DNA from: an uncultured Oscillospiraceae bacterium
GTDB taxonomy: Bacteria > Bacillota > Clostridia > Oscillospirales > Acutalibacteraceae
DNA: 64,000 nt
Direction: 5' to 3'
NCBI GenBank assembly: GCA_902489595.1
Contig: CABUAS010000001.1
Span: 2,166-66,165, forward strand
Shown here: positions 28,570 through 54,674 of the stretch, one piece after another
Layout of the letters: the number at the start of each line of letters is the position of its first letter
How positions within the stretch are numbered: the first letter of the stretch is position 1
Translations under genes and position numbers: made by a program
Notes under the pieces: model-generated
Database searches by the model: none
What the model saw: the letters and a program-made list of their open reading frames with translations, nothing else
What the model was told of the DNA's origin: nothing

Positions 28570-28575
28570 TACCCG

Positions 28576-38430: not shown

Positions 38431-38726
38431 AAAATGAAAAACGCCACTAAATAACTTAGCGGTGTTTCTCAAAAGGGGTAAAAATTTATGTAAAAGCCAA
38501 AAGCTTTTAAGTAAGAAACGGTTTAATTTCTTACTACGCTCATCATTATAATTATTATTTAAAAAAAATCAAGACCTTTATTTGGATTTCTATTTTTTTG
38601 ACATATCGTCTAAAAAGTAAAGGCAATTTTTATGCAATTTTCACAAATGATTATTTACAGATTTTTAATGATGTACAAAAAAAGAATCAGCGGCGTGCAC
38701 ATAAATCACACCGCCGAGGCTCAAAA

Positions 38727-39170
38727 TTACTCCATCTGTTTTCCCAAAAATGCCGCTGCAACCTGCACGAGTTTAATGTCGGTTTCATCGGGCAAAGTAT
38801 TAGGCTCTGTTTCCATAAGAGCCACTGCACCCGAAACATCACCGCCGTAGATAATCGGATACACAACGTTTGCCTTGCGGTCAAACCCCTCAATCGCATT
38901 CATTGACGGAACATCGCGTGTAGCGATGTGAATCTGCCTGTTTTCCATCAAATCTTCAAGATTTTTTGTAATTCTGCGCTCAAGAATTTCACGCTTACTG
39001 ATACCTGATGCGGCAATAACATGATCGTTATCCATAATTGCAATCGGCAGTCCGCCGCTTTTATGAAGCACCTCGGCATACTGATTGGCAAAATTTGAAA
39101 GTTCACCGATAGGTGAATATTTTTTAAAAATAACTTCGCCCTCTGAATCCGTAAAAATTTCCAGCGGGTC
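38727..39170 (-). pseudogene. spoVT: spoVT 3' segment (codons ~32-end, GAF-like C-terminal domain), detached from its 5' end
   Basis: DPLEIFTDSEGEVIFKKYSPIGELSNFANQYAE...VQVAAAFLGKQME is collinear with SpoVT after the GDPLEIF motif. It is read as the tail of the recombinase ORF. Confidence 0.9.
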
Positions 39171-40937
39171 GCCGCCACATATAACATTGACACCGAAAGC
39201 CTTGTCCCTTTGGTTTTTAACCGTTTGGACTATTGTGGCTGATAAGTTACCTTCGATGTCCCAATTAAAATTTACGACTTTACCTCTGTAACCTGCTTCT
39301 TCGAGTTGTTCATCGGTAAGCGTACCTGCTTCAAGCAACATAGCAATATCCGCTTTTAACTCTATGTCTATGTGCGGCTCTTCGCCGTCAAAGACCACTA
39401 TTCTATCAACAATAAGCGGTAGATCGCCCTTGTCGAGTTTATCCTTGTCGAGAATATCACGGAAAATTTGCAAAGCCGTTTTTGCGATACGGTTGACCTC
39501 TATGGTTGTGTTTCTGCGTTCAACCGTCATTTCAAGTTGCTTTTCAAGACCGTCAATTTTTTGCAAAAGCTCGGTTTCCATTTCCTCATAGGTTTCCTCT
39601 ATGATTTCACGGTTTACACCTTCCGCTTTCATTAACTCACGAATTTTCTGCTTTTGAGTAGCCTTGTAACTCTCCCTTGCCTTTGCTAAATCCACCTCTA
39701 AATTTGCGATAGTGGAAGCAGAGGTTTTCATCATTTGTGGCTCACTCTTAATGGCTTTTTCCAATTCAGCAATCATTTTTTCGGAGTTCATCATCACACG
39801 CTCAATATACTTTTTGAGCATCGTATCGAGCAAATCAATACGGGTATGGTGTGATGTGCAACCTTTAAGACCTCTCTTGTGGTACGTTCCACAAGTGTAG
39901 GCGGGTGCTAAATCGGGACGGCTCATAGAGAACATAGGACTACCGCAATCACCACAAAAAAGGAAACCCGAATAGGTAGTATCGTATTTCTTGACACCCC
40001 GATAATTCGATTTTGTCCGTGCTTTTAGGTGCTGTTGAGCCTTCATAAACTCTTTGACATCGACTATGGCAGGGTGATGATTTTCAAACACCTTGTGTTC
40101 GTCCTCGTCCAATTTTTTATCCGCACCATTGATATTTTTACGGGTATATTTGTGCTGACGGAGAGTGCCGATATAAAAATCATTCTGCAAAATACCGCTG
40201 ATTGACGGTATTGCCCATATAGGACTTGCTTTGATTTTTACCTCAACCTTGCCCTTGCTCTTTGCGGCTTCGGCTTCTTTGCGTTCCTTTTCCACCATAC
40301 GAGGTGTCGGGATATTTTTCTCGGTAAGGTAGTTTGCAATTTTCTTATAACCCCACCCCTCGTTGTATAGACGGAAAATCTCACGGACAACCACCGCCGC
40401 CTTTTCGTCAACCTCAAAAATCATATTTTTGGTATCAACAAAGTAATATCCGTAAGGCACGGCACAAATCCAATTCCCGTCATTTTGACGGCTCTCAACG
40501 ACCCTTTTTACCTTTTTGGAAGCATCGGTAACGGGCATTTCGTTGAGCAAAAAGCGTACTTGGATATTATTCCAATCATCATAGGTCGGATAGTCGATAC
40601 CGTCACCGATGGAAATAATACGCACCCCTGCATCTCGCAAATCTTCGAGTTCTACAAGACCTCTACTGTTACGGCGGGAAAAACGGGAAAAGTCTTTAAT
40701 GATAAGAATATCGTAATGCCCGTTCATCAAAAGTGGACGCATACGCTGATAATCTTCTCTCTGCTCAAAGGTGTAACCGCTTTTATCACGATCCTCGTAA
40801 TAGTCCACCTCTGCATCGGGAAATGTCTGCTTAATGTAAGTTTTTATAATTCTTCTTTGGTTTTCGATAGATGTATTATCTCTGTCTTTTTCAGTATCAA
40901 CAGAGATACGCATATATGCGGCAATCTTTTTCGCCAT
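38727..40937 (-). CDS. large serine recombinase (TnpX/SpoIVCA class); ORF continues in frame into the spoVT 3' segment (589 + 147 aa)
   Basis: Resolvase domain (AAYMRISVDT...RFSRR), recombinase domain, Zn-ribbon (CGDCGSPM...CGTY...C) and coiled coil. No stop codon before the junction at 39170. Confidence 0.9.
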   Translation of the reverse strand: MAKKIAAYMRISVDTEKDRDNTSIENQRRIIKTYIKQTFPDAEVDYYEDRDKSGYTFEQREDYQRMRPLLMNGHYDILIIKDFSRFSRRNSRGLVELEDLRDAGVRIISIGDGIDYPTYDDWNNIQVRFLLNEMPVTDASKKVKRVVESRQNDGNWICAVPYGYYFVDTKNMIFEVDEKAAVVVREIFRLYNEGWGYKKIANYLTEKNIPTPRMVEKERKEAEAAKSKGKVEVKIKASPIWAIPSISGILQNDFYIGTLRQHKYTRKNINGADKKLDEDEHKVFENHHPAIVDVKEFMKAQQHLKARTKSNYRGVKKYDTTYSGFLFCGDCGSPMFSMSRPDLAPAYTCGTYHKRGLKGCTSHHTRIDLLDTMLKKYIERVMMNSEKMIAELEKAIKSEPQMMKTSASTIANLEVDLAKARESYKATQKQKIRELMKAEGVNREIIEETYEEMETELLQKIDGLEKQLEMTVERRNTTIEVNRIAKTALQIFRDILDKDKLDKGDLPLIVDRIVVFDGEEPHIDIELKADIAMLLEAGTLTDEQLEEAGYRGKVVNFNWDIEGNLSATIVQTVKNQRDKAFGVNVICGGDPLEIFTDSEGEVIFKKYSPIGELSNFANQYAEVLHKSGGLPIAIMDNDHVIAASGISKREILERRITKNLEDLMENRQIHIATRDVPSMNAIEGFDRKANVVYPIIYGGDVSGAVALMETEPNTLPDETDIKLVQVAAAFLGKQME

Positions 40938-40986
40938 ATATTCACCACCAATGTTGTATTTTTATATACTCCTATTTACGAACAAC

Positions 40987-41015
40987 ATTGTAACATACCT
41001 TTCTACAAATTGCAA
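40987..41015 (-). promoter_or_regulatory. candidate sigma-A promoter of the recombinase gene (internal to the element)
   Basis: Minus strand TTGCAA, 17 nt, TACAAT, about 45 nt upstream of the recombinase ATG. Confidence 0.55.
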
Positions 41016-41095
41016 CACTTTTCGAGGAATTAGTTGATTTTGGAAGTCTTTTAATGTAATTATGGCAGAATAAACCTCTGCCATAGCAGAGATAA

Positions 41096-41344
41096 TTAAC
41101 TATCTCCGATTAGTCCTTGCTGAACGTTCTTGGCTGCAAGAACCTCTTTGTTGTGGAGCAACAACTCCTTTGTGAGTTCCACAATATCGCCTTTGCCGGA
41201 AAGGAATACGCACACCTTATACCCTTTGGCTTTCCAATTTCTATAATCGGGTTTTAAGGACTCTCGCAACGCTTTGTCCTCTCTTTCTTCCCGTGATAAC
41301 CAATAATATGCTATTTTGTTCTTGTCGCAGACTTCCAAAATCAT
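41096..41344 (-). CDS. hypothetical protein (82 aa)
   Basis: ORF with RBS GGAGGTG. No family recognised. Confidence 0.5.
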   Translation of the reverse strand: MILEVCDKNKIAYYWLSREEREDKALRESLKPDYRNWKAKGYKVCVFLSGKGDIVELTKELLLHNKEVLAAKNVQQGLIGDS

Positions 41345-41595
41345 TCGCTGACACCTCCGTTCATTCCATATTTTTCCTCGATTTTGTTGCGTCTATTCAG
41401 ATTGCTTTTTTACCCTCCGAAAAAGAAAATGGGTGTGCCTGACCTCAAGCGGCGGCTTCCAAACACCGCTTTGGTCTATATACTCTCTGTCTAAAGTAGT
41501 CCATAGAATTATTCTTTTTTCGGGTAGTAAGTTATTATCTTTAGTATTGTTTCCTGCTAAAAAGCCGCAGTCTTTAATGCGGAAAAACCGCACTC

Positions 41596-41949
41596 TTACT
41601 GTGTTTGGAACTTGTGGACGTAGAGCCGAGTCGGTCTGCCTTTGCCTTGCCGTTGTCGGCTGATGAGTCCGTACATTTCCAATTCTTTCAGCATTTTGGT
41701 GGCTTTATCGTGTCCGCAGGAAAGTGTTTCGCATATATCCTTTAGGGTGCAATACACGAACACATCGCCGTAGCGGTCAGTAAATCTATCCTTGTTTTTG
41801 GTGGAAAGGCTCATACGGTCAAGCAGTATTCCGTAGAGCAGGGCGGCATTTGCGGATAGCCCCGTATATGACGGGTGCGTTAGGATTGCTTTCGGAACTC
41901 TCACAAAAGCAAACGCTTCAGCTTCCCACCACTTGAATTTTTCGCCCAA
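41596..41949 (-). CDS. RepA_N-like winged-helix protein (replication initiator A N-terminal domain type)
   Basis: FVRVPKAILTHPSYTGLSANAALLYGILLDRMSLS...TLKDICETLSCGHDKATKMLKELE resembles the Firmicute RepA_N domain (from memory). Confidence 0.65.
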   Translation of the reverse strand: MGEKFKWWEAEAFAFVRVPKAILTHPSYTGLSANAALLYGILLDRMSLSTKNKDRFTDRYGDVFVYCTLKDICETLSCGHDKATKMLKELEMYGLISRQRQGKGRPTRLYVHKFQTQ

Positions 41950-42029
41950 GCGTTCTCACTCCTTTCGTGCGATTTTTTGTATTAAAAGGGGGCGGTTTTT
42001 GCCGTTTTCGTCCTCTGTAAGCGGCTTTT

Positions 42030-42278
42030 CTAAGGTGGGTGGTATGTTTCCCTTAACTTCCCGATATTCTGTTTTTTGCAACGATTTGGTGCTTTTTTAC
42101 GGGCATAATGCACCGCCCTTTTGCTTTCATATCGGCGGCACTCTATGATTTTCGCCCGAAAACTCTGTTTGCAATCACGGGTACAACTGCGGCATATTTC
42201 GTTGTAGGTGCGGCGGTGCGTTATCGGATGAATGAAGAACGCCCACTCTTGTTTTGCTTTCTTTGATAATCTCGGCAT
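42030..42278 (-). CDS. cysteine-rich VLP-type small protein
   Basis: Start moved to MPRLSKKAKQEW. The CRSCTRDCKQS...ECRRY motif is common in Firmicute mobile elements (from memory). Confidence 0.6.
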   Translation of the reverse strand: MPRLSKKAKQEWAFFIHPITHRRTYNEICRSCTRDCKQSFRAKIIECRRYESKRAVHYARKKAPNRCKKQNIGKLRETYHPP

Positions 42279-42419
42279 CGTAAAACTCCTTTCACTTATT
42301 TGGACAAAGGGGTGCATTTTGGACACCCATTTTGAATTTCTTTTATTTACCCCTTCACTTGTTCCTACGGACATTATCAGGGTGTCATAGAACTGTCATA
42401 ATCGTTTTGTTTTCCCTCA

Positions 42420-42800
42420 ATGAGTAGCCACCGAGAAGGGCAAAAATATAACCGTTTTCAAAAAATCTTTCTAATAAGTAGGCACCGAAAGCGGCAAAAA
42501 TTCAAAAGGATTTGAAAAAATATCTCTCTATTTGTTTGAAACGGGAGAGGAAAATATAAGGGTGTTTTTTGAAAAATCTCTCACATATTTGGAATTGCTA
42601 CCGCCGAATGATGCCCTGTTTGCATTAAATTTTTCTGCGGCTCTCACTTACCTGCCGCACGGTTTTGAAGAAAAAACGAAACAGTTTCTAATATGTAATT
42701 GGCGAATTTATTTAGCGTTTGGCAAAAATTTTTTGATCTTCCTACTTTTAATTGCTGAATTTTTTTAGCGTTTAGACACTCCGTTTAATAATTTATTGGG
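42420..42800. repeat. iteron-like direct repeats in an A/T-rich noncoding stretch (candidate origin/operator region)
   Basis: GTAGCCACCGAGAAGGGCAAAAAT (42423) matches GTAGGCACCGAAAGCGGCAAAAAT (42477). TTGAAAAAATATCTCTC matches TTGAAAAATCTCTCAC. GAATTTATTTAGCGTTTGG (42704-42722) matches GAATTTTTTTAGCGTTTAG (42756-42774). Confidence 0.4.
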
Positions 42801-42850
42801 AAATTTTTTGCTGAAAATAAAAAAGATTTCCGAAAAAATTTCTCGGAAGT

Positions 42851-43020
42851 CGAATGGAGAATGAGATGCACTATACCAGCAAGCATCGCCTTTTGTCACC
42901 CAAAGGTAGACCTGCCCGCCGACAAAGTATTGTCTTAGCGAGCAGACCGTTTTTACTCCTATCGGCTAAAAATGGTACTCGTTAGGGAAATTCCCTAAAA
43001 CCCTTTGCCGCCGCAGAGCA
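42851..43020 (-). ncRNA. candidate structured ncRNA, copy A (homologous to 53496-53722, opposite strand)
   Basis: Lies between two minus-strand terminators (43022-43062 and 42812-42850). It shares three blocks with copy B: TTAGGGAATTTCCCTAACGAG, GGTCTGCTCGCTAAGA and TTTGGGTGACAAAAGGCGATGCTTGCT. Confidence 0.35.
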
Positions 43021-43072
43021 TAAAAAAGACACCTATCAAAATTGATAAGTGTCTGTGTGCGGCGGTGCCGCC

Positions 43073-43783
43073 TTATTCAGTTTTGGTTTTGAGCCGACAC
43101 ACTCCGTCAGCTTCGTCCCGCCGCTTTAATTCGGCGGCAAGGGTATCCATCATCTTACGCTCAATGTGTTCCACGCTACCACGATTGAGGTCGTGCTGAT
43201 CGGCATACTTGCGTACCGATACCCCGTTTATGTAACGCTCGGTAAAATATTCTGCAAAAACTTTCATTACCGATTTTAAGCAGCCGTTTATAAAGCGGTA
43301 GTCCTCCATCATAACGGCATACTCATCTTTGCTAATGCCAATGTAACGGTTGTGTGCTTTGCAGAGTAAGTGCCTATCCCTATCTTCCGTATAGTGTTTG
43401 CAAAGATCCTTCGCATAATCATAATAGGTGGTGGTTGTTCGGAAACGGCGGCTGTAATAACTCTCTTTGTGTTCTTTTGGCTTGTTCGTGCGGCGAACAC
43501 CCTCGAAGCCATCTTCCTCTATATCGAGCCATAGCCAATTCGGTGCGTTCATTTGCGTTTGACGGGTAAAGCACCGCACCGTCTTTCCGTTATGCTTGAC
43601 CTTTGCATTAAAATCTTTCAAGGGCATTGTAACATACTGATTCTTGTCCTTGTAATCAACTGTATAAAAAATAACGGTGTCCTCTTGGCTTTCATAATCC
43701 TTTGCCGTTGTTACAACAAAGATGTGTTTGCCGTCATAACGCTTGTAATAACCGGCAAAGACACGCCTTTCTTTTTCAGCCAT
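43073..43783 (-). CDS. DNA-binding protein with sigma-70 region-4-like C-terminal HTH (N-terminus DUF1653-like)
   Basis: C-terminus ERYINGVSVRKYADQHDLNRGSVEHIERKMMDTLAAEL resembles a sigma region 4 HTH. The N-terminal assignment is from memory only. Confidence 0.55.
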   Translation of the reverse strand: MAEKERRVFAGYYKRYDGKHIFVVTTAKDYESQEDTVIFYTVDYKDKNQYVTMPLKDFNAKVKHNGKTVRCFTRQTQMNAPNWLWLDIEEDGFEGVRRTNKPKEHKESYYSRRFRTTTTYYDYAKDLCKHYTEDRDRHLLCKAHNRYIGISKDEYAVMMEDYRFINGCLKSVMKVFAEYFTERYINGVSVRKYADQHDLNRGSVEHIERKMMDTLAAELKRRDEADGVCRLKTKTE

Positions 43784-44034
43784 AGAACCGCCACCTTTCC
43801 GTTGAATTTATTTTATTATACACCTTTTTAAGCCGAAAAGAAAGGTCATAATTTTGAACAATTATAGCACAGTATAAAACAAATTGAGAATTAACGATTA
43901 GAATTAATGCCATCGTTAATTCTATCATCTTCACAATTAATTCTGAACTTTTTTTGAAACTTGCTTCCCAATATTGAAAATTCATTGATTTCGGGAAACA
44001 AATGTGGTATAATAACTTTGCGAGGTGATTTTCT

Positions 44035-45228
44035 ATGAAACTAATCGAAAGAAAACAATACTTAGATAAAATGATAGGCGTTATCGGAACTCCCGATATT
44101 AAAGTTTTAACAGGCGTGAGACGTTCGGGTAAATCAAAGTTACTCGAAGCCTTCAAAGCCTATGTGAAAAAGAATATTGTTGACGCTAATATTATTCATA
44201 TCAACTTTAACCTGTCTAAGTATGACAACCTTAAAGAATACAAAGCACTTAATGAATATATCGAAAACAACTATGTAGAAGGTAAGGAAAATTTCGTTTT
44301 AATTGACGAGATTCAAATGTGCGATAATTTTGAGCTGTGTATAAACAATCTCCACGCAACCGAGATGTACGATATTTATATCACGGGTTCTAACGCTTTT
44401 CTGCTCAGCTCGGATTTGGCAACATTGTTTACCGGCAGAACATTCGAAATCAAGGTGTATCCATTCTCCTTTGCCGAATATGTGCATTACTTCGGTCTAA
44501 CAGATAATTATACTGCTTTTGATAACTATATGCTTGAAGGCGGTATGTCCGGTTCTTATCTGTATAAAGAGCAAGAGGATAAATACGATTATATCGAAAC
44601 CGTCTTTGATACGTTGATCTTAAGAGATATACGACAAAAGTATAACATCAAAAATCCTGCTCTGATGGATCGTATTTCTCAATTCTTGATGGATAATGTG
44701 TCCAATTTGACCTCGGCAAGAAGCATTACGGACACGCTCACCTCGAACAAGGATAAAATTAATCATAAGACAGTTGGCAATTATCTGAGTTACCTTTGCA
44801 ACGCATTTGCCTTCTATAAGTTCCGCAGATACGATATTAAAGGCAAAAAATATCTTGCTTCCAACGATAAGTACTATTTAAGTGACCATACCTTCCGCTA
44901 TGCCAAGCTCGGTACAAAAAACTTAGATAACGGCAGAGTGATTGAAAATATCGTTGCAATGGAATTGCTTAGACGTGGCTATGAGGTTTATGTCGGTGTC
45001 TTATATAAAAAAGAGATTGATTTCGTAGCACTTAAGAGAAACGAGAAAATTTATATTCAGGTTTCGGACAATATTACCCATCCCGATACCTTTAGGCGAG
45101 AAGTTGATCCCCTGCTCAAAATCAAGGATGCCTATCCCAAGATGGTTATTGCACGAACAAGAAACCCCGAATATCAATACGAGGGCGTTAGAGTTGTTGA
45201 TGTGGCAGACTGGCTGCTAAACAAATAA
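44035..45228 (+). CDS. AAA+ ATPase (AAA_14 + DUF4143 type, COG1373-like) with PD-(D/E)xK-like C-terminus
   Basis: Walker A GVRRSGKS, Walker B VLIDEIQ. C-terminal EIDFVALKRNEKIYIQVS nuclease-like motif. Confidence 0.8.
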   Translation: MKLIERKQYLDKMIGVIGTPDIKVLTGVRRSGKSKLLEAFKAYVKKNIVDANIIHINFNLSKYDNLKEYKALNEYIENNYVEGKENFVLIDEIQMCDNFELCINNLHATEMYDIYITGSNAFLLSSDLATLFTGRTFEIKVYPFSFAEYVHYFGLTDNYTAFDNYMLEGGMSGSYLYKEQEDKYDYIETVFDTLILRDIRQKYNIKNPALMDRISQFLMDNVSNLTSARSITDTLTSNKDKINHKTVGNYLSYLCNAFAFYKFRRYDIKGKKYLASNDKYYLSDHTFRYAKLGTKNLDNGRVIENIVAMELLRRGYEVYVGVLYKKEIDFVALKRNEKIYIQVSDNITHPDTFRREVDPLLKIKDAYPKMVIARTRNPEYQYEGVRVVDVADWLLNK

Positions 45229-45370
45229 CAACTTCCCAAAAACGAAAAAAATATAAATTTGGATAACGTAATTATTATCCCGCATATATCTTTTTATCAA
45301 GCCGATATTCGTTGGCGCTATTGATATGAAAGTTGTAGATGCTTGTGGGGTAACAGCAAAAGGAGAAAAA

Positions 45371-45871
45371 ATGAAGTTAGCTGAAATATTAAATCTCATA
45401 GCAATTATTATAATTCCAATTATCGCCGTTATAGTTGGGCAGTGGTTACAAACTCGCTCTGAAAAACGAAAAGACAAAATGCACATATTTAAAACATTAA
45501 TGACTTCCCGTGTTTATGGGTGGACGCAAGAAAGTGTATATTGCTTAAATATAATCGACATAGTGTTTGCAGATGATAAGAAAGTACGCAATGCGTGGAA
45601 AGACTTGTACGATAAGTATTGTGTTCAAAATCCCGATGAATCGCAACTTAAAAAAATCGAGACTGCACAATACAAATTATTAGAGACTATGGCTGTTTCT
45701 TTAGGATATAAGGATAAGGTTACGTGGGAAACCATTCAAAATCCCTATATTCCCAAAGGAATGTTACGGCAGATCGAAGCTCAAAACCAATCTCAACAAG
45801 CGTATAACAATCTATTGCTAAATATGCAACAGATGATGCCGCAGAGTAAAAATCCGGAGGAAAAGAAATGA
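45371..45871 (+). CDS. small N-terminally membrane-anchored protein, translationally coupled to mod
   Basis: Start at [25 protein letters not shown] (RBS AAAGGAG). Its stop overlaps the mod ATG (ATGA). Confidence 0.6.
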
Positions 45872-47592
45872 GTACCAATATTTCAAAACAAAAGCGTGAG
45901 GATCTACTTACGAAAATAAAAGAAATTCGGACTTTTATTTCTGCTGCACCGCAGGACGAGAACACGGGCAATCTGCTCTCCTACCTTTCGGAGCTTGAAA
46001 AAGATGTGTGCGGTAAAAAATACGGTCTTGTGTTCGAGGAACACCGTGAGGAGATTGACGAGGTACTTGCCACCCACACGCCCGTCCTGACTGAGCAAAG
46101 CGACCTTTATATTGCCAACGGCGGCGAAATGAACTTTCTTATCGAGGGGGACAACCTCGCTTCGCTCAAATTGCTTGAAAAGACACACAAGGGTAAAATT
46201 GACCTCATTTACATAGATCCGCCATATAACACACAAAACGCTGATTTTATGTACGATGATACTTTTGTTGCGGCGGATGACTTATATAGACACAGTAAAT
46301 GGCTGTCTTTTATGAAAAAAAGATTACTGTTTTGTCGAAAATTATTAGCTGACAGAGGTTTTATTTTTATAAGCATTGATGACAACGAAGCACCGTACTT
46401 AAAGGCTCTCTGTGATGAAATTTTTGGTGAGGATAATTACGAAAAAACTGATTATATTCAAGTGCGTTATCCCGATAAAACATTGAAATCCGATATGCGT
46501 TACCACAAGGAAATTGAGCAAGTTTTAGTGTATCGAAAGTCATTTGCGGCAAAACCATATCTTAAACCACAAGAATATGATTACGATAAATTTATATATT
46601 CTATCAATGAATTATCCGCAGGCAAAGAGATCGAATTGGGCGGAAAAAAGGTGGTTGTCTTTGAGCAAGACGAATACGAAATCATACAACACGATACGGG
46701 CTTCAAAGATGGTCTAAAAGAAATATGGGCAACGGGTACAATTCTCAATGGTAATTCATCGGGTAGATTTTTCCGTGATTATCTTGATGGCAGAAAAGAT
46801 ATTGATGGATTAGGCATTCTTTATAAAGTTTATGGTATAGGCGATGACCAATACCCCTACCGATATTTTACCGGTCCTAAAAAGGCAAATGCAACAAAAG
46901 GAAAGTATTATCAAGGAGTTCCTTTCGAAAAGATGGCAGAGGGTGCGACAAAGGTAACTCCTATTCCTAATTTTTATGATATGGCAGGAGATTTTGGCAA
47001 CATTCGGCACGAGGGCGGTGTTCCTTTTAATAGCGGCAAAAAACCTGTTAAACTGATAAATATGTACCTTGATTATTTTGCAGAGAAAGATATTACGGTT
47101 CTTGACTTTTTCGCAGGTTCAGGCAGTACGGGACACGCTGTGTTACAACGCAATACCCTTGACGACGGAAATCGAAAATTCATTCTTTGCACAAATAACG
47201 AAAGCGGTATTTGTCGGGACATTACATATACCCGCATTAAAAACGTTTTGCAGAAAAATAGCGGCAGTCTAAAATATTACAAGGTGGACTATATCCCCGT
47301 GAGCGAGCGTATGTACTACGAATATGCGGACGAGCTGCTTTTGCATATCCGTGAACTCGTTGAGCTTGAAAACGGTGTAAATTTTACGGGCAATGCTGAA
47401 ATCGGTATTGTGCTGACGGAAGAAGAACTTGACGAATTTATAGCCAATGCAGACTCTTTTGCAAAATGCCGCAAACTGTATATGGGACACGACCTCTTAC
47501 CGAGCGAAGAACAAGAGCGTGTACTGAAGAAATACGGCATTGAAATCAGTATCATTCCCGACTACTACTATCGGGATTTGCAGGAGGGTTGA
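45868..47592 (+). CDS. mod: type III restriction-modification methyltransferase (Mod)
   Basis: DPPYN motif ([10 protein letters not shown]) and [13 protein letters not shown] motif in beta-class order, with a central variable region. Confidence 0.85.
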
Positions 47593-49781
47593 TTATGGTA
47601 TTAAAAGAATTTCAGTTAAATGCGGTAAAATCGTTGTTTGAAGCAATGGCAACCCCTGCTCGTGATATTATTCTCAAAAGCCCTACGGGTAGCGGTAAAA
47701 CCATTATTTTGACCTATTTTATGCACCAATACATACAGTCTTTCCCGAAAACCGTCTTTGTATGGCTTACGCCCGGCAAGGCAAACCTTGAAGAACAGAG
47801 CAAGGCGAAAATGGATAAGTATATCCACGCTTCGCAAACAAAACTGCTCTCCGATGTGATGACGGCGGGTTTTGAGGAAAATGACAGTTGCTTTATAAAT
47901 TGGGAGAAGCTGACGAAGAAAGGCAATAATGCCCTGAAAGACAGTGAACGCACCAACTTTTTAGAGCATATTCAACACGCCCTCAATGACGGTATTCGCT
48001 TTGTGATTATCGTGGACGAGAGCCACCAAAACAACACCATAAAAGCCGATGAAATTATACAGTATTTTCACACGGACAAGATTATCCGTTGCTCTGCTAC
48101 TCCGAAAGGCATAGCGAAAGCGGAAATCATTGATATTCCCGAAGAAGAGGTTATTGCGGCGGGACTTATCAAAAAAATGCTTGTTATTAACCAAGACTTT
48201 CCGCAGACCATTGAAACAGAAGATCAAACGGCTTTTCTGCTTGAAAAGGCACTCAAAAAGCAAAGGGAACTCCGTGCAGCATTTTTACAAAACGATACCG
48301 ATATTAACCCTTTAATCGTAATTCAGATCCCGAACAAATCTGAATCCTTGCAGGACGGTGTGGAACGTTACCTTGAAACGCAGGGGTTGACCTACGAGAA
48401 CGGACAACTTGCGGTATGGCTCTCCGACCAACACGAAAATTTGGAGGGTATTGACGAGCCTAACGCCACCACCTCTGCGGTCATTATAAAACAAGCGGTT
48501 GCTACGGGTTGGGATTGTCCGAGAGCACATATCCTTGTGAAACTTCGTGATAATATGGACGAAACCTTTGAGATACAAACGATAGGTCGTATTCGCCGTA
48601 TGCCCGAAGCAAAGCACTACCAAAGTGATCTGCTCGACAGTTGCTATCTTTACACCCTCGATGAAAAATTCACCGCAGGCGTAAAAATGGCTCTCGACAA
48701 GGGTGCATTAAACGCTTGTACTCTTTTTCTTAAAAACGAATATAAAGACATAACGCTCACAAGCGAACAGCGAACAATGGTTACAAGTACCCGTAATCCA
48801 CAAAAGGCATTACAAGCCATTGTTGCCTACGCTCAAAAGGAACTTGGCATTGGTACGGACAAGACGGAAAATCGGACACGTTTGCAGACCGCAGGCTATG
48901 AGTTGAGCGAAAACATTGTAAAGCATACCCTTTCGGGTGAAACTGCTACCCTTGATTTTGCGGCGGCAGATATGAACGCTATTGCGGTTACTGAAAAACT
49001 GAATACCCATACACACGGACGAGATTACCATCAAAAAGTCGGTAAAATCGGCTTGGAAATCGGTATGGAATATTCGTATATGAACACCATTATTCGCAAA
49101 CTGTTTGATAAAAACTTTAAGTACAGCCGTAAAATCCTTGCTTTAGAGCCGAGAGAGGTTTACGCCTTCGTAATAAACAACGCTGACAGACTTCGCCATT
49201 TAGTGCGTGAAGCTATGGCTTATGAATTGGCTCAAATGCAGTTTGAAATTCAGCAAAAATCTTATTACGAGTTCCGCATTCCGCAGTCTTGTTTATTCAC
49301 CTACAACGGCGAAGCGAAAACGCAGCTCGTAATGAAAAAGAACGTATATCAGAATTATCTCTCATCTGCCGCACCACGCTCTATGCCGGAGGTTAAATTT
49401 GAGAAATTCTGCGAGCGTTCCGACAGCATTGAATGGTGGTATAAAAACGGGGACAAGGGTAATGAGTATTTTTCTATCGTCTATACGGATAATTCCAATA
49501 GACAAAAGCTGTTCTACCCCGACTATATTATTTCCGTAAACGGCGAGTTGTGGATTATCGAAACAAAGGGCGGCTTTGACCGTAGCGGCAATAGCCAAGA
49601 TATAGACCTTTATACACCGAAGAAATTTGGTGTGTTAAAAGCCTATCTTGACGAACACGGATTAAAAGGCGGTATCGTCCGCAACGATGCAACAACCGAT
49701 GAACTGTGTATCTGTATGGATCACTATTCCGATGACATCGGTAGTGATGATTGGCAAGTGCTTGAAAGCGTATTGCCTTAA
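47589..49781 (+). CDS. res: type III restriction enzyme Res subunit (SF2 helicase + PD-(D/E)xK nuclease)
   Basis: [13 protein letters not shown] and QTIGRIRR helicase motifs. C-terminal [18 protein letters not shown] nuclease motif. Start overlaps the mod stop. Confidence 0.85.
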
Positions 49782-49822
49782 ATAGACGAAAACGGCAGGT
49801 GTCTATACTGCACCTGCCGTTA

Positions 49823-50080
49823 CTACTCTATTTCTTGGTCGAGGTTATCGAACTCTGCTGAGTCGAAAAAGTCTTTAAGGGACATATTAACCCCGTCACA
49901 AATGATTTTTATGGTTGCGATTTTAGGATTTTTGCTTTTGCCGTAAAGGATATTCTTTATCGAGGACGGCGGCAAGCCTGCGGCGGTTGCCAACGCATTT
50001 ATGGTTAAATCCTTTTCATCGCATATCTGCAATATTCTATTTTTAACCGCTTTGCATAGCGGTGAGCGTTGATCGGTCAT
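49823..50080 (-). CDS. XRE-family HTH transcriptional regulator
   Basis: Start at MTDQRSPL. HTH ICDEKDLTINALATAAGLPPSSIKNILYG. Confidence 0.8.
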   Translation of the reverse strand: MTDQRSPLCKAVKNRILQICDEKDLTINALATAAGLPPSSIKNILYGKSKNPKIATIKIICDGVNMSLKDFFDSAEFDNLDQEIE

Positions 50081-50194
50081 ACTGACTACCCCTATATACA
50101 CATTTTGCTATATATAGTGTAGTCAATTTTTTTGACGATTATAGGCTACGCATACTACTTTTAGGCTATACATAGCCTATTGGAGATGAACACA

Positions 50195-50626
50195 ATGGAG
50201 AAAACAGCGACTTTTATCGGACACGGCGAGTGTTGGGGTGTGGATAAAGAGAAAGTCCGTGCCGCCGCCGAAGAATTGATACAAAAAGGTGTCGAAACCT
50301 TCCTTTCGGGCGGTATGGGCGGCTTTGATTGGCTCGGTGCAAGGGTTGTATATGAGTTAAAGGAAAAGTACCCTCATATCAAAAATATCCTTGTAATTCC
50401 GTACCTTACCTTTAACGTGCGGAACAAAGACCTCTTTGACGAAATACTCTACCCCGATGGCTTTGAGAAATATCATTTTAAGGCGGCGATCCCGAAGCGT
50501 AACCGCTTTCTCGTAGATAACTCAAAATATGCAATCTGCTATGTTACACACGGCTGGGGCGGAGCTGCACAAACCTATGAATACGCAAAAAAGCACGGCT
50601 TGAACATTGTGGATATACGATGTTGA
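50195..50626 (+). CDS. SLOG-fold protein of the YpsA/DUF1273 type
   Basis: TFIGHG...FLSGGMGGFDWLGARVV...KRNRFLVDNS pattern resembles DUF1273 (from memory). Start chosen at MEKTATF with RBS GGAG. Confidence 0.6.
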   Translation: MEKTATFIGHGECWGVDKEKVRAAAEELIQKGVETFLSGGMGGFDWLGARVVYELKEKYPHIKNILVIPYLTFNVRNKDLFDEILYPDGFEKYHFKAAIPKRNRFLVDNSKYAICYVTHGWGGAAQTYEYAKKHGLNIVDIRC

Positions 50627-50809
50627 AAACAAGGTGATGTGTTTTGATTTAAGCACAGCCGAAATTTCTACCTATCGTCAAGCCAAAGACGAATAATTTT
50701 TAGCACTACCAAAGCGGCAGGGGGAGAAATCTCCCTGCCGTGATTTTCCTTATTTTGTGTTAAATTTTCAAAATCGAAACAAAATATAGTGTTTATTATG
50801 AAAAAAGAC

Positions 50810-50838
50810 TTGACTTTTTCGGTAAGATGGGTTATACT
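50810..50838 (+). promoter_or_regulatory. sigma-A promoter of the immR/immA-like operon
   Basis: TTGACT, 17 nt, TATACT, 50 nt upstream of the XRE gene. Confidence 0.6.
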
Positions 50839-50886
50839 TTTGGTAAGTCGGAGTAGAAGTTACTCCGCATATAAGGAGGAAATACT

Positions 50887-51198
50887 ATGAGTAAAGCATT
50901 TGGACAGAGGTTATTAAACCTATTACAAAAACAAGGTATAACACAAAAGGAGCTTGCTGATAGAATTAATACTACTGAAGCAACACTCTCTCGTTATGTT
51001 TCCGGCGACAGAGAGCCTAAAGCGGATATGCTCGCAAATATCGCTACTGCCCTTCACACTACATCGGATTATCTGCTCGGAATTGAGCCTGATGATTTTG
51101 ATTTCCCAAAGGTTGAGCGTCTATTAGCAAGAAACGCCGCAACAATGTCGGAAAAACAAAAACGAGCACTTATTTCTGCTTTGTTCGGGGAGGACTAA
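50887..51198 (+). CDS. XRE-family repressor (ImmR-like)
   Basis: HTH QKELADRINTTEATLSRYVSGDREP. Directly followed by the ImmA-type protease gene. Confidence 0.85.
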   Translation: MSKAFGQRLLNLLQKQGITQKELADRINTTEATLSRYVSGDREPKADMLANIATALHTTSDYLLGIEPDDFDFPKVERLLARNAATMSEKQKRALISALFGED

Positions 51199-51200
51199 TA

Positions 51201-51749
51201 TTGGCATTTAGATTATCAGACAAACGATGTGAAGAAATCAAAGAGATTGTAGTCAACACTTTCGAGGAACTTAATATCCGATGTATTCCTATAAGTGCCT
51301 TTGAAATGGCTACAAAACTCGGTGCGGTGGTTGTCCCTTATTCCTCAAAAACCGAAGAAACACGGCAACTTATGATGGAAAGAAGTGAGGACGGATTTAC
51401 CATCAAGAAAGATGGCGTGTGGTACATTTTTTATAATGATGCAAAGGGCTACGGACGTGTCAACAACACCCTCACCCACGAGTGTGGGCATATAGTGTTG
51501 GATCACACGGAAGAAAGCGAATTGGCAGAAGCCGAAGCGAAGTTTTTTGCAAAGTATGCTCTCGCACCGCCCGTCCTCATTCACAAATTAGAGTTAAAGG
51601 ATGCCTACGAGGTTTACGAGCATTTTGACATCAGCCTTGAAGCAGCAGGCTACGCCTTCTCTTACTATCGTAAATGGTTGACTTACGGCAATAAGGATTA
51701 TACCAATTACGAAATACGATTACTCCAGCTTTTTAAAGAAGCTGTGTAA
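51201..51749 (+). CDS. ImmA/IrrE-family metalloprotease (anti-repressor type)
   Basis: HExxH motif THECGHIVLDH. TTG start with RBS GGGGAGGA. Confidence 0.85.
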   Translation: MAFRLSDKRCEEIKEIVVNTFEELNIRCIPISAFEMATKLGAVVVPYSSKTEETRQLMMERSEDGFTIKKDGVWYIFYNDAKGYGRVNNTLTHECGHIVLDHTEESELAEAEAKFFAKYALAPPVLIHKLELKDAYEVYEHFDISLEAAGYAFSYYRKWLTYGNKDYTNYEIRLLQLFKEAV

Positions 51750-51781
51750 TAGTAAATTAAGAGAAAGGACGGTGATGTTAT

Positions 51782-51982
51782 ATGATTGTAAAGGTCGTAC
51801 AAATAGAAAAAGCACTCAGTAAATTGCGGCAACAATTTACAAAGTGCGTTCTCTTTGGATGCGAGCATCCGATATTCTGTTACAAGTATTATGCCACATC
51901 TGAAGAAAAATTGCAAGAACTATTGATGTTTTTACGAAAAAAATTTGCGATTTTCTGCAAAGAACAGATGAGGAGGGCATAA
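51782..51982 (+). CDS. hypothetical small protein (66 aa)
   Basis: ORF in operon context only. Confidence 0.35.
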   Translation: MIVKVVQIEKALSKLRQQFTKCVLFGCEHPIFCYKYYATSEEKLQELLMFLRKKFAIFCKEQMRRA

Positions 51983-51987
51983 TATAT

Positions 51988-52653
51988 ATGTCAAGAAAAA
52001 ATGGCACTCGAAGTGGGTGCAAAGATGTTTTTCACGCATTTTTAGTAAAAAATGCGAACTACGATAGTCCACTTGAAATCCCGTGCTTAAAAACAGAAAT
52101 GCGAAAGCCCAACAAGCTCATTGCGTTTTCAAAGGCGGTACACAGTACCGAATATGATGCTTGGGTGCATTTTTACGAGGACGATACCGCTTTTGAAAGA
52201 TTATGGAATAGACCTAACACCTATCTCCCTATCCTAAAGAAATTCAAAGGGGTTATATCTCCCGATTTTAGTGTCTATCGAGATATGCCGTTGGTAATGC
52301 AACAATGGAATATTTATCGTAGCCGTGCAATCGGTCATTGGTTGCAAGAAAACGGAATACCCGTCATCCCCAATATACGCTTTGGCGATGATCGTACATT
52401 TGAATTATCCTGTGCGGGTATAAAAAAGCACGGGGTAATCGCAGTAGGCTCTCACGGCTGCATAAGGCTACTGAGCGAACGCAAGTATTTTATAAACGGC
52501 TTAAAATATGTGGTTGACACATTAGAGCCAAAAACCATTGTGGTATATGGTGCTACACCGGACGAGGTTTTCGCACAGTATAAAGAAATGGGAATTGAAA
52601 TACTGCAATTCGACAGCGACTTTATGCAAAGTCGAAAGGCGGTGAGCGCTTAA
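51988..52653 (+). CDS. DUF4417-like protein
   Basis: The pattern VISPDFSVYRDMPLVMQQWNIYRSRAIGHWLQENGIPVIPN matches my recollection of DUF4417. RBS GAGGAGG. Confidence 0.55.
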   Translation: MSRKNGTRSGCKDVFHAFLVKNANYDSPLEIPCLKTEMRKPNKLIAFSKAVHSTEYDAWVHFYEDDTAFERLWNRPNTYLPILKKFKGVISPDFSVYRDMPLVMQQWNIYRSRAIGHWLQENGIPVIPNIRFGDDRTFELSCAGIKKHGVIAVGSHGCIRLLSERKYFINGLKYVVDTLEPKTIVVYGATPDEVFAQYKEMGIEILQFDSDFMQSRKAVSA

Positions 52654-53093
52654 TGGGTGCAGGCTTTCACGGTGGTTTTGGCGGCACTCACGGTGCAGGC
52701 GAAAACCACAAAGATTACATTGAAAATACTCTGCCCAAGAGTTCACCTATTAAAATTCCGTACTCTGCCACAGTAAAAGAAGAACAGAAAAACGGATACG
52801 ACCAAGTTAAATATACTTGGAAAAAGGGTGATTATTCTTATACAAGCCGTTGGCACACCCGCACACCTAATGCACCAAAAGAGCAAGGAAATTCGTGGGT
52901 TGTTGAGCGTAAAAAATCAGGTGTTGGTTACGGCAAAAATGCACGCCCAAAGCAAGAAGAAGTTTTGGTAGGAAAAAACAAGTGGATATCAAAGCAAGAT
53001 TGGAAAAATGCAATAATGGCACGTAAAAAAGGCACATTAACACAACAACAAAAGGAGTGGTTGGATAATGGACACTGGAAAGACAATAGATAA
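52653..53093 (+). CDS. basic, Gly-rich-N-terminus protein (toxin-like, unassigned)
   Basis: GAGFHGGFGGTHGAG then a K/R/W-rich domain (YTSRWHTRTPNAP). TAATG overlap with the upstream gene. Confidence 0.45.
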   Translation: MGAGFHGGFGGTHGAGENHKDYIENTLPKSSPIKIPYSATVKEEQKNGYDQVKYTWKKGDYSYTSRWHTRTPNAPKEQGNSWVVERKKSGVGYGKNARPKQEEVLVGKNKWISKQDWKNAIMARKKGTLTQQQKEWLDNGHWKDNR

Positions 53094-53451
53094 TTTCAAA
53101 TTCTATGAGGGATTTGAAGGTGAACCCGAAATTGTAATCAAAGCCGAAAACTCGGATATGCAAATCTTACATATATGGGATGGATACTTTGATGATATAT
53201 TGAGAGAACCCAAGCTTGACGGAAACGGGTGGCAAGGGTTTACAAGAGATTATCATCAATGCGAGGGTGCGTTCGGGGATGATTCCGAAGCAATCATAAC
53301 AGATATAAACGAATACCTCTCTGACCTAAAATCATACCAAAATCGTCATTTTGATTATGACGATACAAAAGAAGTGTATGATTTACTGTGTTCTTGGTTA
53401 GATAATGCAATAAAAAATGGGTTTGAAAGAATATCTATAAAAGTAGTCTAA
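53068..53451 (+). CDS. acidic small protein (immunity/antitoxin-like, unassigned)
   Basis: D/E-rich 127-aa ORF with RBS AAGGAG, overlapping the preceding gene by 26 nt. Confidence 0.45.
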   Translation: MDTGKTIDNFKFYEGFEGEPEIVIKAENSDMQILHIWDGYFDDILREPKLDGNGWQGFTRDYHQCEGAFGDDSEAIITDINEYLSDLKSYQNRHFDYDDTKEVYDLLCSWLDNAIKNGFERISIKVV

Positions 53452-53495
53452 TCTATTTCACGGCAGAGACTTGTTCTCTGCCGTGTTTTCATTTT

Positions 53496-53722
53496 GGCGG
53501 GTATTAGGGTGTTCCCTAACGAGTGGTATTTGGTAGTGTGACTACCCAAATACACTGCTCGCTAAGACGGGACGGCTTACGAGCAAAGCACCGTTTGTGG
53601 AAAACCTATCCACAAATGGTCTGCTCGCTAAGATAGTGCAGATTATTACCGCACGTGGCTTTTGGGAACAAAAGACGATGCTTGCTATGCTCATACCGCC
53701 AATGGCGGCAAAGCAAAAAAGA
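53496..53722 (+). ncRNA. candidate structured ncRNA, copy B
   Basis: Flanked by terminator hairpins (53460-53495 and 53723-53768). Internal hairpins TTAGGG-TGTT-CCCTAA, GGTAG-TGTGA-CTACC and CCGTTTGTGG...CCACAAATGG. The CTCGCTAAGA motif occurs twice. Confidence 0.35.
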
Positions 53723-53771
53723 AGGCACAACCAACGGATTTTCGTCCGAAGGCTGTGCCTTTTTCATTGTT

Positions 53772-53945
53772 CTATACGTATTTTACACGCACATTTTTGA
53801 GTTTTGACCGCATAATTTTTAGCAAAACTTCGTCAACGCCGTCCGTGTATTTACCCGCCGATATAAGCGCGTTTTTCTTTGCGATAAGGCTCTCAATTAT
53901 CAAATTTCTTTCTTCGGGGGTGATGTAAATGTAAAACTTTTTCAA
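53772..53945 (-). CDS. small ORF (57 aa, TTG start overlapping the tnpV stop)
   Basis: (M)KKFYIYITPEERNLIIESLIAKKNALISAGKYTDGVDEVLLKIM... found by hand translation. It is below the ORF-track cutoff and is followed by a hairpin terminator. Confidence 0.4.
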   Translation of the reverse strand: MKKFYIYITPEERNLIIESLIAKKNALISAGKYTDGVDEVLLKIMRSKLKNVRVKYV

Positions 53946-54310
53946 GCGTAAACCACCTCTGCGTTGACAATTTCGGTGGCTCGGTTACGGATATTGTTCA
54001 TCTTCTGCACCCACTCCATCGGTGCGGCGGCTTTCAATTTTTCCGTAACACCCTCGTTTTCAGCAAGGGATTTTACAATGTCCTCAAACATTCTCTCGGC
54101 TCGTTTGTCGAGATTGGAAAGGTGGCTTGTCAATTTGCAACTTGTCAGCAGATTGATGTAAAACACCTTCCTGTGCTGCTTAATGTAGCGTAGATGCCGC
54201 TGTCCCCATACCCCTATTTCCGTTTCTTCTTCGGTGGGCAAAACGAGGTTGGGTAGGTAGTAATCGCCCTGCTTTGTGTAAGTGCCGCCCATTTTTTCGT
54301 ACTGTGTCAT
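53942..54310 (-). CDS. tnpV: TnpV-like protein (Tn4451/Tn4453 family accessory protein)
   Basis: MTQYEKMGGTYTKQGDYYLPNLVLPTEEETEIGVWGQRHLRYIK...WVQKMNNIRNRATEIV matches the TnpV pattern. RBS GGAGG. Confidence 0.8.
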   Translation of the reverse strand: MTQYEKMGGTYTKQGDYYLPNLVLPTEEETEIGVWGQRHLRYIKQHRKVFYINLLTSCKLTSHLSNLDKRAERMFEDIVKSLAENEGVTEKLKAAAPMEWVQKMNNIRNRATEIVNAEVVYA

Positions 54311-54331
54311 TTTTTCTGACCTCCGTATAAT

Positions 54332-54508
54332 TTATTTTCCGATGCAACGTTCAGCGAACTGAAGCATTGCATAACAGAACTTTTCATACGGTGTCAATGA
54401 TGTATGTAACGGGTCACCCTCTTTAATTCTGAATGAACGCCTGATTTCCTTTGGAATAACAATTCTTCCGAGATCATCAATACGTCTTACAATTCCTGTT
54501 GCCTTCAT
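54332..54508 (-). pseudogene. spoVT: spoVT 5' segment (AbrB-type N-terminus, 33 codons) running into 24 element-encoded codons
   Basis: MKATGIVRRIDDLGRIVIPKEIRRSFRIKEGDP then LHTSLTPYEKFCYAMLQFAERCIGK-stop. RBS GGGAGA. Confidence 0.9.
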
Positions 54509-54674
54509 TGTAATTTCTCCCTTAAAATGTATTTTGCTCTGTAATATTTTGCACATTATTTACTGTAAAATACAAATTAAGTTGAGGAATTTTTAACCAA
54601 AATCAGCAAAAAACTTTATTTTAAATTACTCTTATGATAGAATATAAAAAATAAATGCACAAAGGATAATTTTA

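Follow-up and report, generated by a model that had tools for sequence, protein, structure and literature searches.

An integrative element inside the forespore regulator gene spoVT of uncultured gut Clostridia, with a candidate forespore-type promoter before its putative directionality factor gene

How can a mobile element occupy a developmental gene that is needed in the spore itself? The question is raised by a 64-kb stretch of DNA (64,000 nucleotides of contig CABUAS010000001.1 from an uncultured Oscillospiraceae bacterium, hereafter the window), in which the sporulation gene spoVT is split by an insert of 15,245 bp. A preliminary description of this locus, made from the DNA letters alone, stated that the described sporulation intervening elements sit in mother-cell genes, and the literature searched agrees: these elements have mother-cell targets, and they excise in the terminal mother cell only (PMC4191935, PMC6957869). 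It also placed spoVT under forespore control, which holds in C. difficile, where the gene depends on sigma-F as well as on sigma-G and its mutant forms no heat-resistant spores (PMC3789822). As that description had supposed, full-text literature searches found no account of a spoVT-interrupting element, and the supplements of a survey of large serine recombinases (LSRs; PMC10083194) mention neither SpoVT nor sporulation. The reading that we favour, and consider fairly probable, is that a non-phage integrative element has inserted here and that its excision is set off in the forespore.

The minus-strand open reading frame (ORF) 54508-54332 codes for MKATGIVRRIDDLGRIVIPKEIRRSFRIKEGDP, after which come 25 foreign residues (LHTSLTPYEKFCYAMLQFAERCIGK) and a stop; Pfam matches an AbrB/MazE-type (MazE_antitoxin) domain at residues 7-34 of this 58-aa chimera. 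The product of the 3' half begins with DPLEIFTDSEGEV, ends with FLGKQME and contains the whole Pfam domain SpoVT_C (1-128 of 128, E = 4.5e-39). This half has no start codon of its own and is the in-frame end of a 736-aa recombinase ORF (40937-38727). Translation and Pfam thus bear out the claim that an AbrB-type N-terminus and SpoVT_C lie 15,245 bp apart, on the same strand and in frame. The insertion is precise and falls at codons G31-D32-P33: GG(T/C)GACCCG is found at both junctions, and the two copies of GACCCG (54415-54410 and 39170-39165) are spaced by 15,245 bp. When the halves are joined, a 178-aa protein results, which aligns end to end (1-178 to 1-177) with B. subtilis SpoVT (PDB 2W1T; E = 4.9e-47), so that the two are collinear parts of one SpoVT homologue, as had been proposed. 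The exact reconstituted 178-aa protein is present in a public protein collection, as is the exact 58-aa chimera, which 119 contigs encode and whose cluster has 214 members. The break lies within the N-terminal AbrB-type DNA-binding domain (the 55-residue, swapped-hairpin domain of 2RO5). Upstream of spoVT are pth, mfd and the genes of an M23 peptidase and a PHP protein, and downstream are a glycosyltransferase gene and a gene for a BclA-like collagen protein; the pth-mfd synteny had already been pointed out, and the context as a whole fits the spoVT orthologue of a spore former. Forespore-type promoters were scored with a two-block position weight matrix built from 44 mapped C. difficile sigma-F/sigma-G promoters (Table S6 of PMC3789822). 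With this matrix, the candidate forespore-type promoter of spoVT (Table 1) reaches 11.0 bits and rank 60 of the 128,000 window positions, and similar sites are found upstream of spoVT in two related loci (L008 and L009).

The attachment sites attL and attR were read from the junction sequences (Table 1). In the reconstructed attP, the 24-bp half-sites match as an inverted repeat at 19 of 24 positions around a central GA; the symmetry of attB is lower (10/24). Inverted half-sites around a central dinucleotide are the usual design of serine-integrase attP sites. Strand exchange is placed by us, from these sequences, at the GA of GGN-GAC-CCN (G31-D32-P33), because the symmetry centre of attP lies there and the junctions at secondary sites diverge directly after GG-GA. 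The secondary junctions (the tails of cluster 2 and the loci L018, L028, L030 and L034) diverge directly after GG-GA or GG-GAC-CC, a pattern that fits strand exchange at GA with occasional use of secondary sites. In the proteins P0137-P0147 and in the same four loci, the same recombinase is joined to non-spoVT sequence after GG-GA; the target ORF in L030 reads GLNIFT where spoVT has PLEIFT.

An empty site and a circular joint had been named as the checks to make, and exact copies of both predictions exist in public assemblies. The predicted 86-bp attB is found in four conspecific Logan contigs (L004-L007). These have the gene order of the window and match its flanks at 95.7-100% identity (three of the four at 99.2-100%); the host species is therefore polymorphic for the element. 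The predicted 86-bp attP joint is found in one ENA contig (L001, ERZ27236846). Positions 1-4873 of this contig correspond to 44037-39165 of the window and positions 4868-5046 to 54415-54237, the overlap being the 6-bp core. Since a 141-mer assembly is unable to form such a joint from 6-9 bp of identity, an excised or tandem form of the element existed in the L001 sample. The same observations bear on whether the split could be an artefact of assembly or binning. The window and all related loci do come from metagenome assemblies, but the same two junctions recur in independent assemblies, on hundreds of contigs from numerous samples and assemblers, and the shared core of 6-9 bp is too short to mislead assemblies at k = 141; an artefact is extremely improbable.

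The recombinase contains the Pfam domains Resolvase (PF00239), Recombinase (PF07508) and Zn_ribbon_recom (PF13408) and matches the PHROG integrase at E = 1.1e-85. It has the catalytic resolvase, recombinase and zinc ribbon domains of an LSR, and its attP has the LSR design of about 50 bp. This attP is located within the 3' end of the recombinase's own gene. The recombinase ORF spans attR, and the integrated form encodes a 736-aa recombinase::SpoVT_C fusion, which is publicly annotated as 'stage V sporulation T C-terminal domain-containing protein'. The C-terminus of the recombinase thus depends on the state of the element: it is a 145-aa SpoVT domain when integrated and a 25-aa tail when excised. 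The predicted circle-encoded recombinase has 591 residues and the 25-aa tail (616 aa), and this attP form is present in the collection (as a K4N variant, on contig L001). The extreme C-terminus of SprA is cited as influencing directionality (Abe et al. 2020, as cited in PMC8270828). Against the NCBIfam equivalog of XisF, the excisase of the Anabaena fdxN element, the window recombinase scores 79.5 bits, below the cut-off of 375. Attachment sites inside the gene of the own tyrosine recombinase are known from Myxococcus phage Mx8 (intP/attP) and Sulfolobus SSV1. As in these, integration alters the integrase coding sequence, and the free and integrated forms encode different proteins; unlike in these tyrosine recombinases, the C-terminus that is gained is an entire folded domain of the host, SpoVT_C, joined in frame. 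The recombinase gene is preceded by a sigma-A-type promoter (Table 1), the -10 region of which, TGTTACAATGTTGTT, is kept down to the 55% clade. An inverted repeat, ACAATGTTGT...ACAACATTG, covers the -10 region and the 5' leader of the gene (40940-41000, minus strand) and ends beside the ribosome-binding site; it is conserved in L008, L009, L011, L036, L039 and L058 and could be an operator or a translational hairpin.

The 78 nt that follow the crossover in attL (54332-54409) are almost invariant between elements whose tnpV genes are merely 54-64% identical. The first 54 nt are unchanged, and the whole tail is about twice as long as a normal P' arm; the region 39171-39215 was noted alongside it. 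The near-absence of synonymous change in this tail argues for a constraint on the DNA, and selection at the protein level was rejected as an explanation of the conservation. Also rejected was the idea that the 25-aa tail completes the AbrB fold, because the AlphaFold 2 (AF2) model of the chimera is of low confidence (pLDDT 59) and the tail in it is helical. A reading in which no excision is needed, the function of SpoVT being supplied by the 58-aa AbrB-like fragment together with the recombinase::SpoVT_C fusion, or by a second spoVT copy, could appeal to a fusion that is always in frame and to the almost invariant tail. We regard it as very improbable: the break falls inside the swapped-hairpin DNA-binding domain, the model of the chimera has no AbrB-like hairpin, the tail is conserved as DNA with no sign of protein selection, and there is no second spoVT within the 64-kb window.

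The fusion protein was used as the query for related elements, and clusters of full-length recombinase::SpoVT_C proteins were counted. There are at least 119 such clusters. Some 85 of the 119 have a recombinase part with 99.5-100% identity to that of the window and a SpoVT_C part with only 37-75%; near-identical recombinases joined to divergent SpoVT_C domains argue for very recent entry at the same spoVT codon in many host species. One genome per species was then scanned, which gave 55 loci, all from metagenome-assembled genomes (MAGs) and 49 of them with readable downstream sequence; L049 and L054, 100% identical duplicate contigs of one MAG, were counted once. The hosts are Acutalibacteraceae, other Clostridia and some Lachnospiraceae, from human and ruminant guts. 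The fusion is in frame at GGN-GAC-CCN, with the junction after GA, in 43 of the 49 evaluable loci, at recombinase identities to the query of 52-100%. At the level of 50% clusters, there are three full-length fused representatives beyond the query's own cluster, and the next LSR relatives (at most about 48% identical) are not fused to SpoVT_C. The spoVT halves are intact in 42 of the 43 fused loci. A frame shift near the end of the spoVT 3' part in L035 (1873-2308) marks the sole decayed copy among the 43, or an assembly error. In a short JGI contig (L071:900-1020), the first seven codons of the spoVT 5' fragment are missing and unrelated sequence stands before it, possibly through a rearrangement or a chimera. 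These elements form a widespread clade in uncultured gut Clostridia, with a dedicated attB in spoVT and horizontal spread. The fusion, the recurrence across the family and the polymorphism within the host species go beyond the preliminary description.

A candidate recombination directionality factor (RDF) is encoded by orf82, which lies directly upstream of the recombinase gene in about 45 loci, over a range of recombinase identity of 52-100%, and is the sole gene besides the recombinase gene that is kept in all clades. Its identity broadly tracks that of the recombinase, falling from 96% to 32% as the latter falls from 99.8% to 53%. The family comprises 68 clusters with nine invariant residues, and one variant (P0496, which NCBI annotates as 'Ruminococcus sp.') has entries in 321 blocks of the collection. 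On both sides of the gene there are terminator-like hairpins (41592-41565 before it and 41093-41074 after it). The layout orf82-recombinase-attR equals that of the rdf-int-attR unit described for SPbeta (PMC6957869).

The candidate forespore-type promoter of orf82 (Table 1) scores 17.7 bits and ranks first among the 128,000 window positions; the corresponding site in L074 is first among 40,504. A site with the same spacer and position stands before orf82 in most clades, including clades whose upstream DNA is unalignable to that of the window. Ten sequence-distinct variants of the -10 were found, eight with empirical p values of 0.0005-0.034 and two weak ones (Fisher ~5e-10, the variants being not fully independent). 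The matches include those in L041 (p 0.002, -10 GGAAAAATA), L049 (0.003, TCAATAATT), L030 (0.006, GAAATAATA), L036 (0.007, GGAAGAATA), L058 (0.012, CTAACAATA), L024 (0.027, TAAATAATA), L045 (0.033, GAGAAAATC) and L047 (0.034, TCCATACTC). No sigma-E- or sigma-K-like motif was found upstream of orf82 or of the recombinase gene. The second-best forespore-type match in the window (GAATA-N13-GGAAACATA, 42043-42069, minus strand) lies 94 nt upstream of the RepA_N-like gene; it was set aside as a promoter because it is not conserved in sister elements beyond L031 and, weakly, L074.

This promoter bears on a simpler account, in which the element merely knocks out spoVT and leaves its carriers with defective sporulation, excises independently of development, either rarely or stochastically or in answer to stress or transfer signals (through an ImmR/ImmA-like pair), and is maintained by frequent horizontal transfer. 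Near-identical recombinases in very different hosts do speak for rapid horizontal spread, and the element is polymorphic within its host species; its cargo includes a helix-turn-helix (HTH) and M78 peptidase pair resembling ImmR/ImmA of ICEBs1, insertions at secondary sites occur, and a single attP joint was seen. We nevertheless think this account rather unlikely. The promoter before the recombinase-linked orf82 is the best match in the window and recurs in most clades examined, the association of the LSR clade with spoVT reaches down to 52% identity and would be hard to sustain if every insertion abolished spore transmission, and only a single fused locus has a damaged spoVT half. Among a stable knock-out, excision elsewhere and excision in the germline, the promoter evidence at orf82 would favour germline (forespore) excision.

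On this favoured reading of forespore excision, the sequence of events can be drawn up as follows. Integration truncates the DNA-binding domain of SpoVT and places tnpV and orf57 behind the spoVT promoter. In growing cells, the sigma-A-type promoter would drive expression of the recombinase alone and the integrated state would be stable. In the forespore, RNA polymerase with sigma-F or sigma-G would transcribe orf82, and Orf82 would act as the directionality factor; the element would then be excised precisely and spoVT rebuilt under its own forespore promoter, in the compartment that needs it. The non-dividing spore would retain the circle, which after germination would be re-integrated by the recombinase alone. 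The role of Orf82 as an RDF, the forespore timing and the re-integration are the steps that we infer. The pairs sprB/sprA, skr/spoIVCA and girX/girC likewise consist of a recombinase and a small RDF, and a sporulation promoter sets the timing (PMC4191935, PMC6957869, PMC5595907). Re-integration after germination by a sigma-A-driven recombinase is plausible: the spore does not divide, and LSRs integrate efficiently in the absence of an RDF (PMC5595907, PMC5499854). Excision in the forespore would account for the persistence of an element in spoVT, without which C. difficile forms no heat-resistant spores (PMC3789822).

The return of the circle is the step at which a variant of this scheme departs: excision would take place in the forespore, but the circle would not return, spores would be cured, and only vegetative lineages and re-invasion would keep the element going. 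This variant can draw on the same evidence of forespore timing, and it would suit the extreme horizontal spread, the minority status of the element as an allele in its host species, and the gene content, in which no complete replication or partition module was found and the sole replication-related gene encodes a 117-aa RepA_N/DnaD-like protein. It appears improbable to us, since the circle restores an intact recombinase ORF behind a conserved sigma-A-type promoter, as re-integration needs, LSR integration is efficient without an RDF, as cited above, and a single circle is not diluted in a spore that does not divide. A more far-reaching form of forespore excision would be a programmed germline cycle, with sigma-F/G-driven exit in every spore, passage of the circle through dormancy, re-entry into spoVT and a swap of the C-terminus that helps to set the direction; we put this forward tentatively, as a possibility that is open to considerable doubt.

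Several observations weigh against excision in the forespore. In the host species, the intact spoVT allele is found on many more contigs than the element allele, and the empty sites may never have been occupied. L001 is the sole contig found with an attP joint; a 41-nt query of the P' arm and tail gave three matches in JGI metagenomes, all attL and none attP, and a query of the element P' arm and tail gave zero matches in IMG/VR. All hosts found are MAGs. Orf82 has no detectable similarity to a known RDF or to a Pfam, NCBIfam or PHROG family. The promoter matrix derives from C. difficile, a distant AT-rich relative of the hosts, and the matches before orf82 in L039 (p 0.09, -10 TTCAAAATA) and L050 (p 0.16, -10 GACACGATA) are weak. 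The ImmR/ImmA-like pair and TnpV point to other, non-developmental routes of induction, and germline excision risks loss of the element.

The features of the element are presented in Table 1. Its left-end module of about 0.8 kb (spoVT 5' part, tail, tnpV and orf57) is seen in four complete elements; the right-end module of about 3 kb contains orf82 and the recombinase gene in all clades and the RepA_N-like gene in the closer clades only, and the middle is variable cargo. The complete sister elements L008 (~9.2 kb), L009 (~8.9 kb) and L023 (~10.7 kb) have only the two end modules in common with the window, and the window cargo is absent from L008, L009, L023, L039, L058 and L074. Other cargoes are a HaeIII-type methylase-endonuclease fusion (L008), a RelB/PIN pair with small-molecule enzymes (L009), a type I restriction-modification (R-M) system with HipAB and a NikA-like gene (L074) and genes resembling those of non-ribosomal peptide synthetases (L039). 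The large serine recombinase, TnpV, regulators and R-M cargo that had been recognised in the window were confirmed with Pfam and PADLOC, the R-M system being of type III. The PDC-S01 ATPase and the adjoining DUF6680 gene, located just upstream of the type III genes, suggest a small defence island as cargo. Pfam and PHROGs searches of the element ORFs revealed neither conjugation genes nor genes for phage structure, packaging or lysis, and family-library scans of the window-element ORFs gave no match to a relaxase family. The insert is a non-phage, site-specific integrative element that is probably mobilizable and probably moved by helper elements. About 1.1 kb (41950-43072) has no convincing gene, and the gene caller left the same stretch empty in L001; an oriT or a regulatory region is possible there. 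Rfam gave no structured RNA match in 36000-57000.

Table 1. Coordinates of the features of the split spoVT locus and of the element within it (window positions).
Feature	Position	Strand	Basis or remarks
spoVT 3' part (residues 32-178 and stop), in frame with recombinase	38727..39170	-	Pfam SpoVT_C; PDB 2W1T alignment
attR: element P arm, crossover GA (39170-39169), spoVT B' arm	39145..39194	-	junction sequence
Large serine recombinase, coding part (residues 1-589), no stop before spoVT	39171..40937	-	Pfam, PHROG
Sigma-A-type promoter of recombinase gene	40987..41015	-	TTGCAA-17-TACAAT, extended TG; promoter scan
orf82 (82 aa), candidate RDF	41096..41344	-	always adjoins recombinase, upstream
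Candidate forespore-type promoter of orf82	41369..41398	-	GAATA-N16-GGAAAAATA; -10 end 25 nt before ATG
RepA_N / DnaD-like small protein (117 aa)	41596..41949	-	Pfam RepA_N E = 3.7e-19; PHROG DnaD-like helicase loader
Variable cargo	41950..53771	.	Pfam, PADLOC, PHROGs
DUF1653-like gene	43073-43783		cargo
PDC-S01-type AAA ATPase (AAA_14/DUF4143)	44035-45228		cargo; candidate defence family PDC-S01, E = 3.5e-147
DUF6680 gene	45326-45871		cargo
Type III Mod	45868-47592		cargo
Type III Res	47589-49781		cargo
HTH gene	49823-50101		cargo
YpsA/SLOG gene	50180-50626		cargo
HTH and M78 peptidase pair resembling ImmR/ImmA	50887-51749		cargo
DUF4417 gene	51988-52653		cargo
Two unknown genes	within 41950..53771		cargo
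orf57	53772..53945	-	overlaps tnpV stop; conserved left-end module
tnpV	53942..54310	-	Pfam TnpV PF14198, E = 5.8e-47
spoVT 5' fragment, 25-codon element-encoded tail and stop	54332..54508	-	translation; spoVT codons 1-33 = 54410-54508
attL: spoVT B arm, crossover GA (54415-54414), element P' arm	54390..54439	-	junction sequence
Candidate forespore-type (sigma-F/sigma-G) promoter of spoVT	54545..54573	-	GTATT-N15-TGCAAAATA; -10 end 37 nt before ATG

Concerning the smaller genes of the end modules, tnpV lies on the strand of the spoVT 5' fragment and starts 22 nt past its stop; no terminator-like site separates the two, and the distance from the spoVT ATG to tnpV (~198 nt) is equal in L008, L009 and L023. 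Read-through from the spoVT promoter into tnpV and orf57 was considered as a trigger of excision, the arrangement being found in four complete elements; on the circle, however, tnpV comes directly behind the recombinase gene, a poor fit to an RDF, and read-through is kept only as a side observation. Homologues of orf57 in L008, L018 and L032 are 67-90% identical, and domain-library searches gave no family match for it. By tblastn, the RepA_N-like protein is 72-99% identical in nine closer-clade loci and 43% identical in L034. For TnpV of Tn4451, a role as a lambda-Xis-like excisionase has been postulated (PMC3158075). We set this role aside for the window protein: a search of the PDB with its AF2 model (pLDDT 88.6) gave no structural neighbour at E < 1, and a close homologue is found beside a tyrosine integrase. 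This homologue, 64% identical, is encoded in a Ruminococcus bromii-type island (L063-L070) inserted next to guaA, which contains the tyrosine integrase, a NikA-like gene, a Mob_Pre relaxase, Kiwa (KwaA/KwaB), a type I R-M system and AbiEii; TnpV is thus not specific to LSRs. Outside the element, the genes directly 3' of spoVT (36235-38472, minus strand) encode a family-2 glycosyltransferase and a collagen-repeat protein with a BclA C-terminal domain and are probably exosporium genes; the collagen-repeat length differs among conspecific contigs. About 20 co-oriented genes form a run at 9787-29718 (plus strand).

The described sporulation intervening elements used for comparison are skin in sigK (SpoIVCA/Skr), SPbeta in spsM (SprA/SprB), the phi3T-type element in kamA, vfbin in spoVFB and vrin in spoVR. 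Like skin and SPbeta, the spoVT element lies inside the coding sequence of a sporulation gene, the ORF of which is restored by precise removal, and has a serine recombinase at its edge, beside the 3' gene fragment, with a small gene adjoining the recombinase gene; as in skin elements, sister elements share only the recombination module (bioRxiv 10.1101/2022.02.25.481979). Unlike the skin/SPbeta/gin class, its target is a forespore regulator. The full-length SpoVT match, the pth-mfd synteny, the dependence on sigma-F and sigma-G in C. difficile (PMC3789822) and the forespore-type promoters all place spoVT outside the mother-cell genes. The element therefore has the structure of that class and lacks its mother-cell target. 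It also differs from skin and SPbeta in that the candidate RDF promoter is of the sigma-F/G type and not of the sigma-E/K type (developmental excision of the spoVT element being a proposal), there are no phage genes, and attP lies within the recombinase ORF. Another comparison is gin in gerE of Bacillus cereus (GirC/GirX; PMC5595907), which is also a non-prophage element with an LSR; its RDF is tiny and, like the candidate Orf82, without known motifs, an ImmR/ImmA-like pair is discussed for it, and it may be moved by other conjugative systems (PMC5595907). Unlike spoVT, gerE is a mother-cell gene, and gin has three recombinases and no recombinase-target fusion (PMC5595907); gin is restricted to the B. 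cereus group, whereas the spoVT element family spans many uncultured Clostridia.

On its gene content, the element is closest in make-up to the Tn4451/Tn6104 group (LSR and TnpV; PMC3158075). With the mobilisable transposons Tn4451, Tn4453 and Tn6104 (PMC3158075) it shares an LSR, a TnpV homologue (PF14198), a 2-bp crossover and a small size with accessory cargo. On the circle, as in this group, tnpV directly follows the recombinase gene; unlike in it, attP lies between the two genes, so that integration separates them. The crossover dinucleotide of TnpX is GA, as in the window element. No Mob/relaxase (TnpZ) match was found in the window-element ORFs, unlike in the Tn4451 group, although the sister element L074 has its NikA-like gene, and the loose target of that group contrasts with a strict one here, at a single spoVT codon in 43 of 49 evaluable loci. 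A further parallel is active lysogeny, known from Listeria phage phi10403S in comK and from SpyCIM1 in mutL of Streptococcus pyogenes, where excision restores the gene and re-integration follows later. Excision in a surviving cell line with re-integration is common to both, as a hypothesis in the case of spoVT; unlike the spoVT element, phi10403S and SpyCIM1 are phage or phage-like and are not linked to sporulation.

The class of sporulation gene-intervening elements is known, and the fusion, the recurrence across a family and orf82 with its forespore-type promoter are new here. If excision does take place in the forespore, it would break the rule by which all described sporulation intervening elements stay clear of the germline, their excision taking place in the doomed mother cell alone, and it would show how a mobile element can occupy an essential germline developmental gene without being lost and without killing the spores of its host; the spoVT element makes this question of germline excision directly testable. 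The compact set of a recombinase, a small factor and att sites, with a C-terminus that changes with the state of integration, is of interest for the directionality of serine integrases. Members of the family are frequent in Clostridia of the human and ruminant gut, which pass from host to host as spores. The family could therefore have an effect on how these bacteria sporulate and are transmitted and on how defence genes (R-M systems, toxin-antitoxin pairs and candidate defence ATPases) move within the microbiome.

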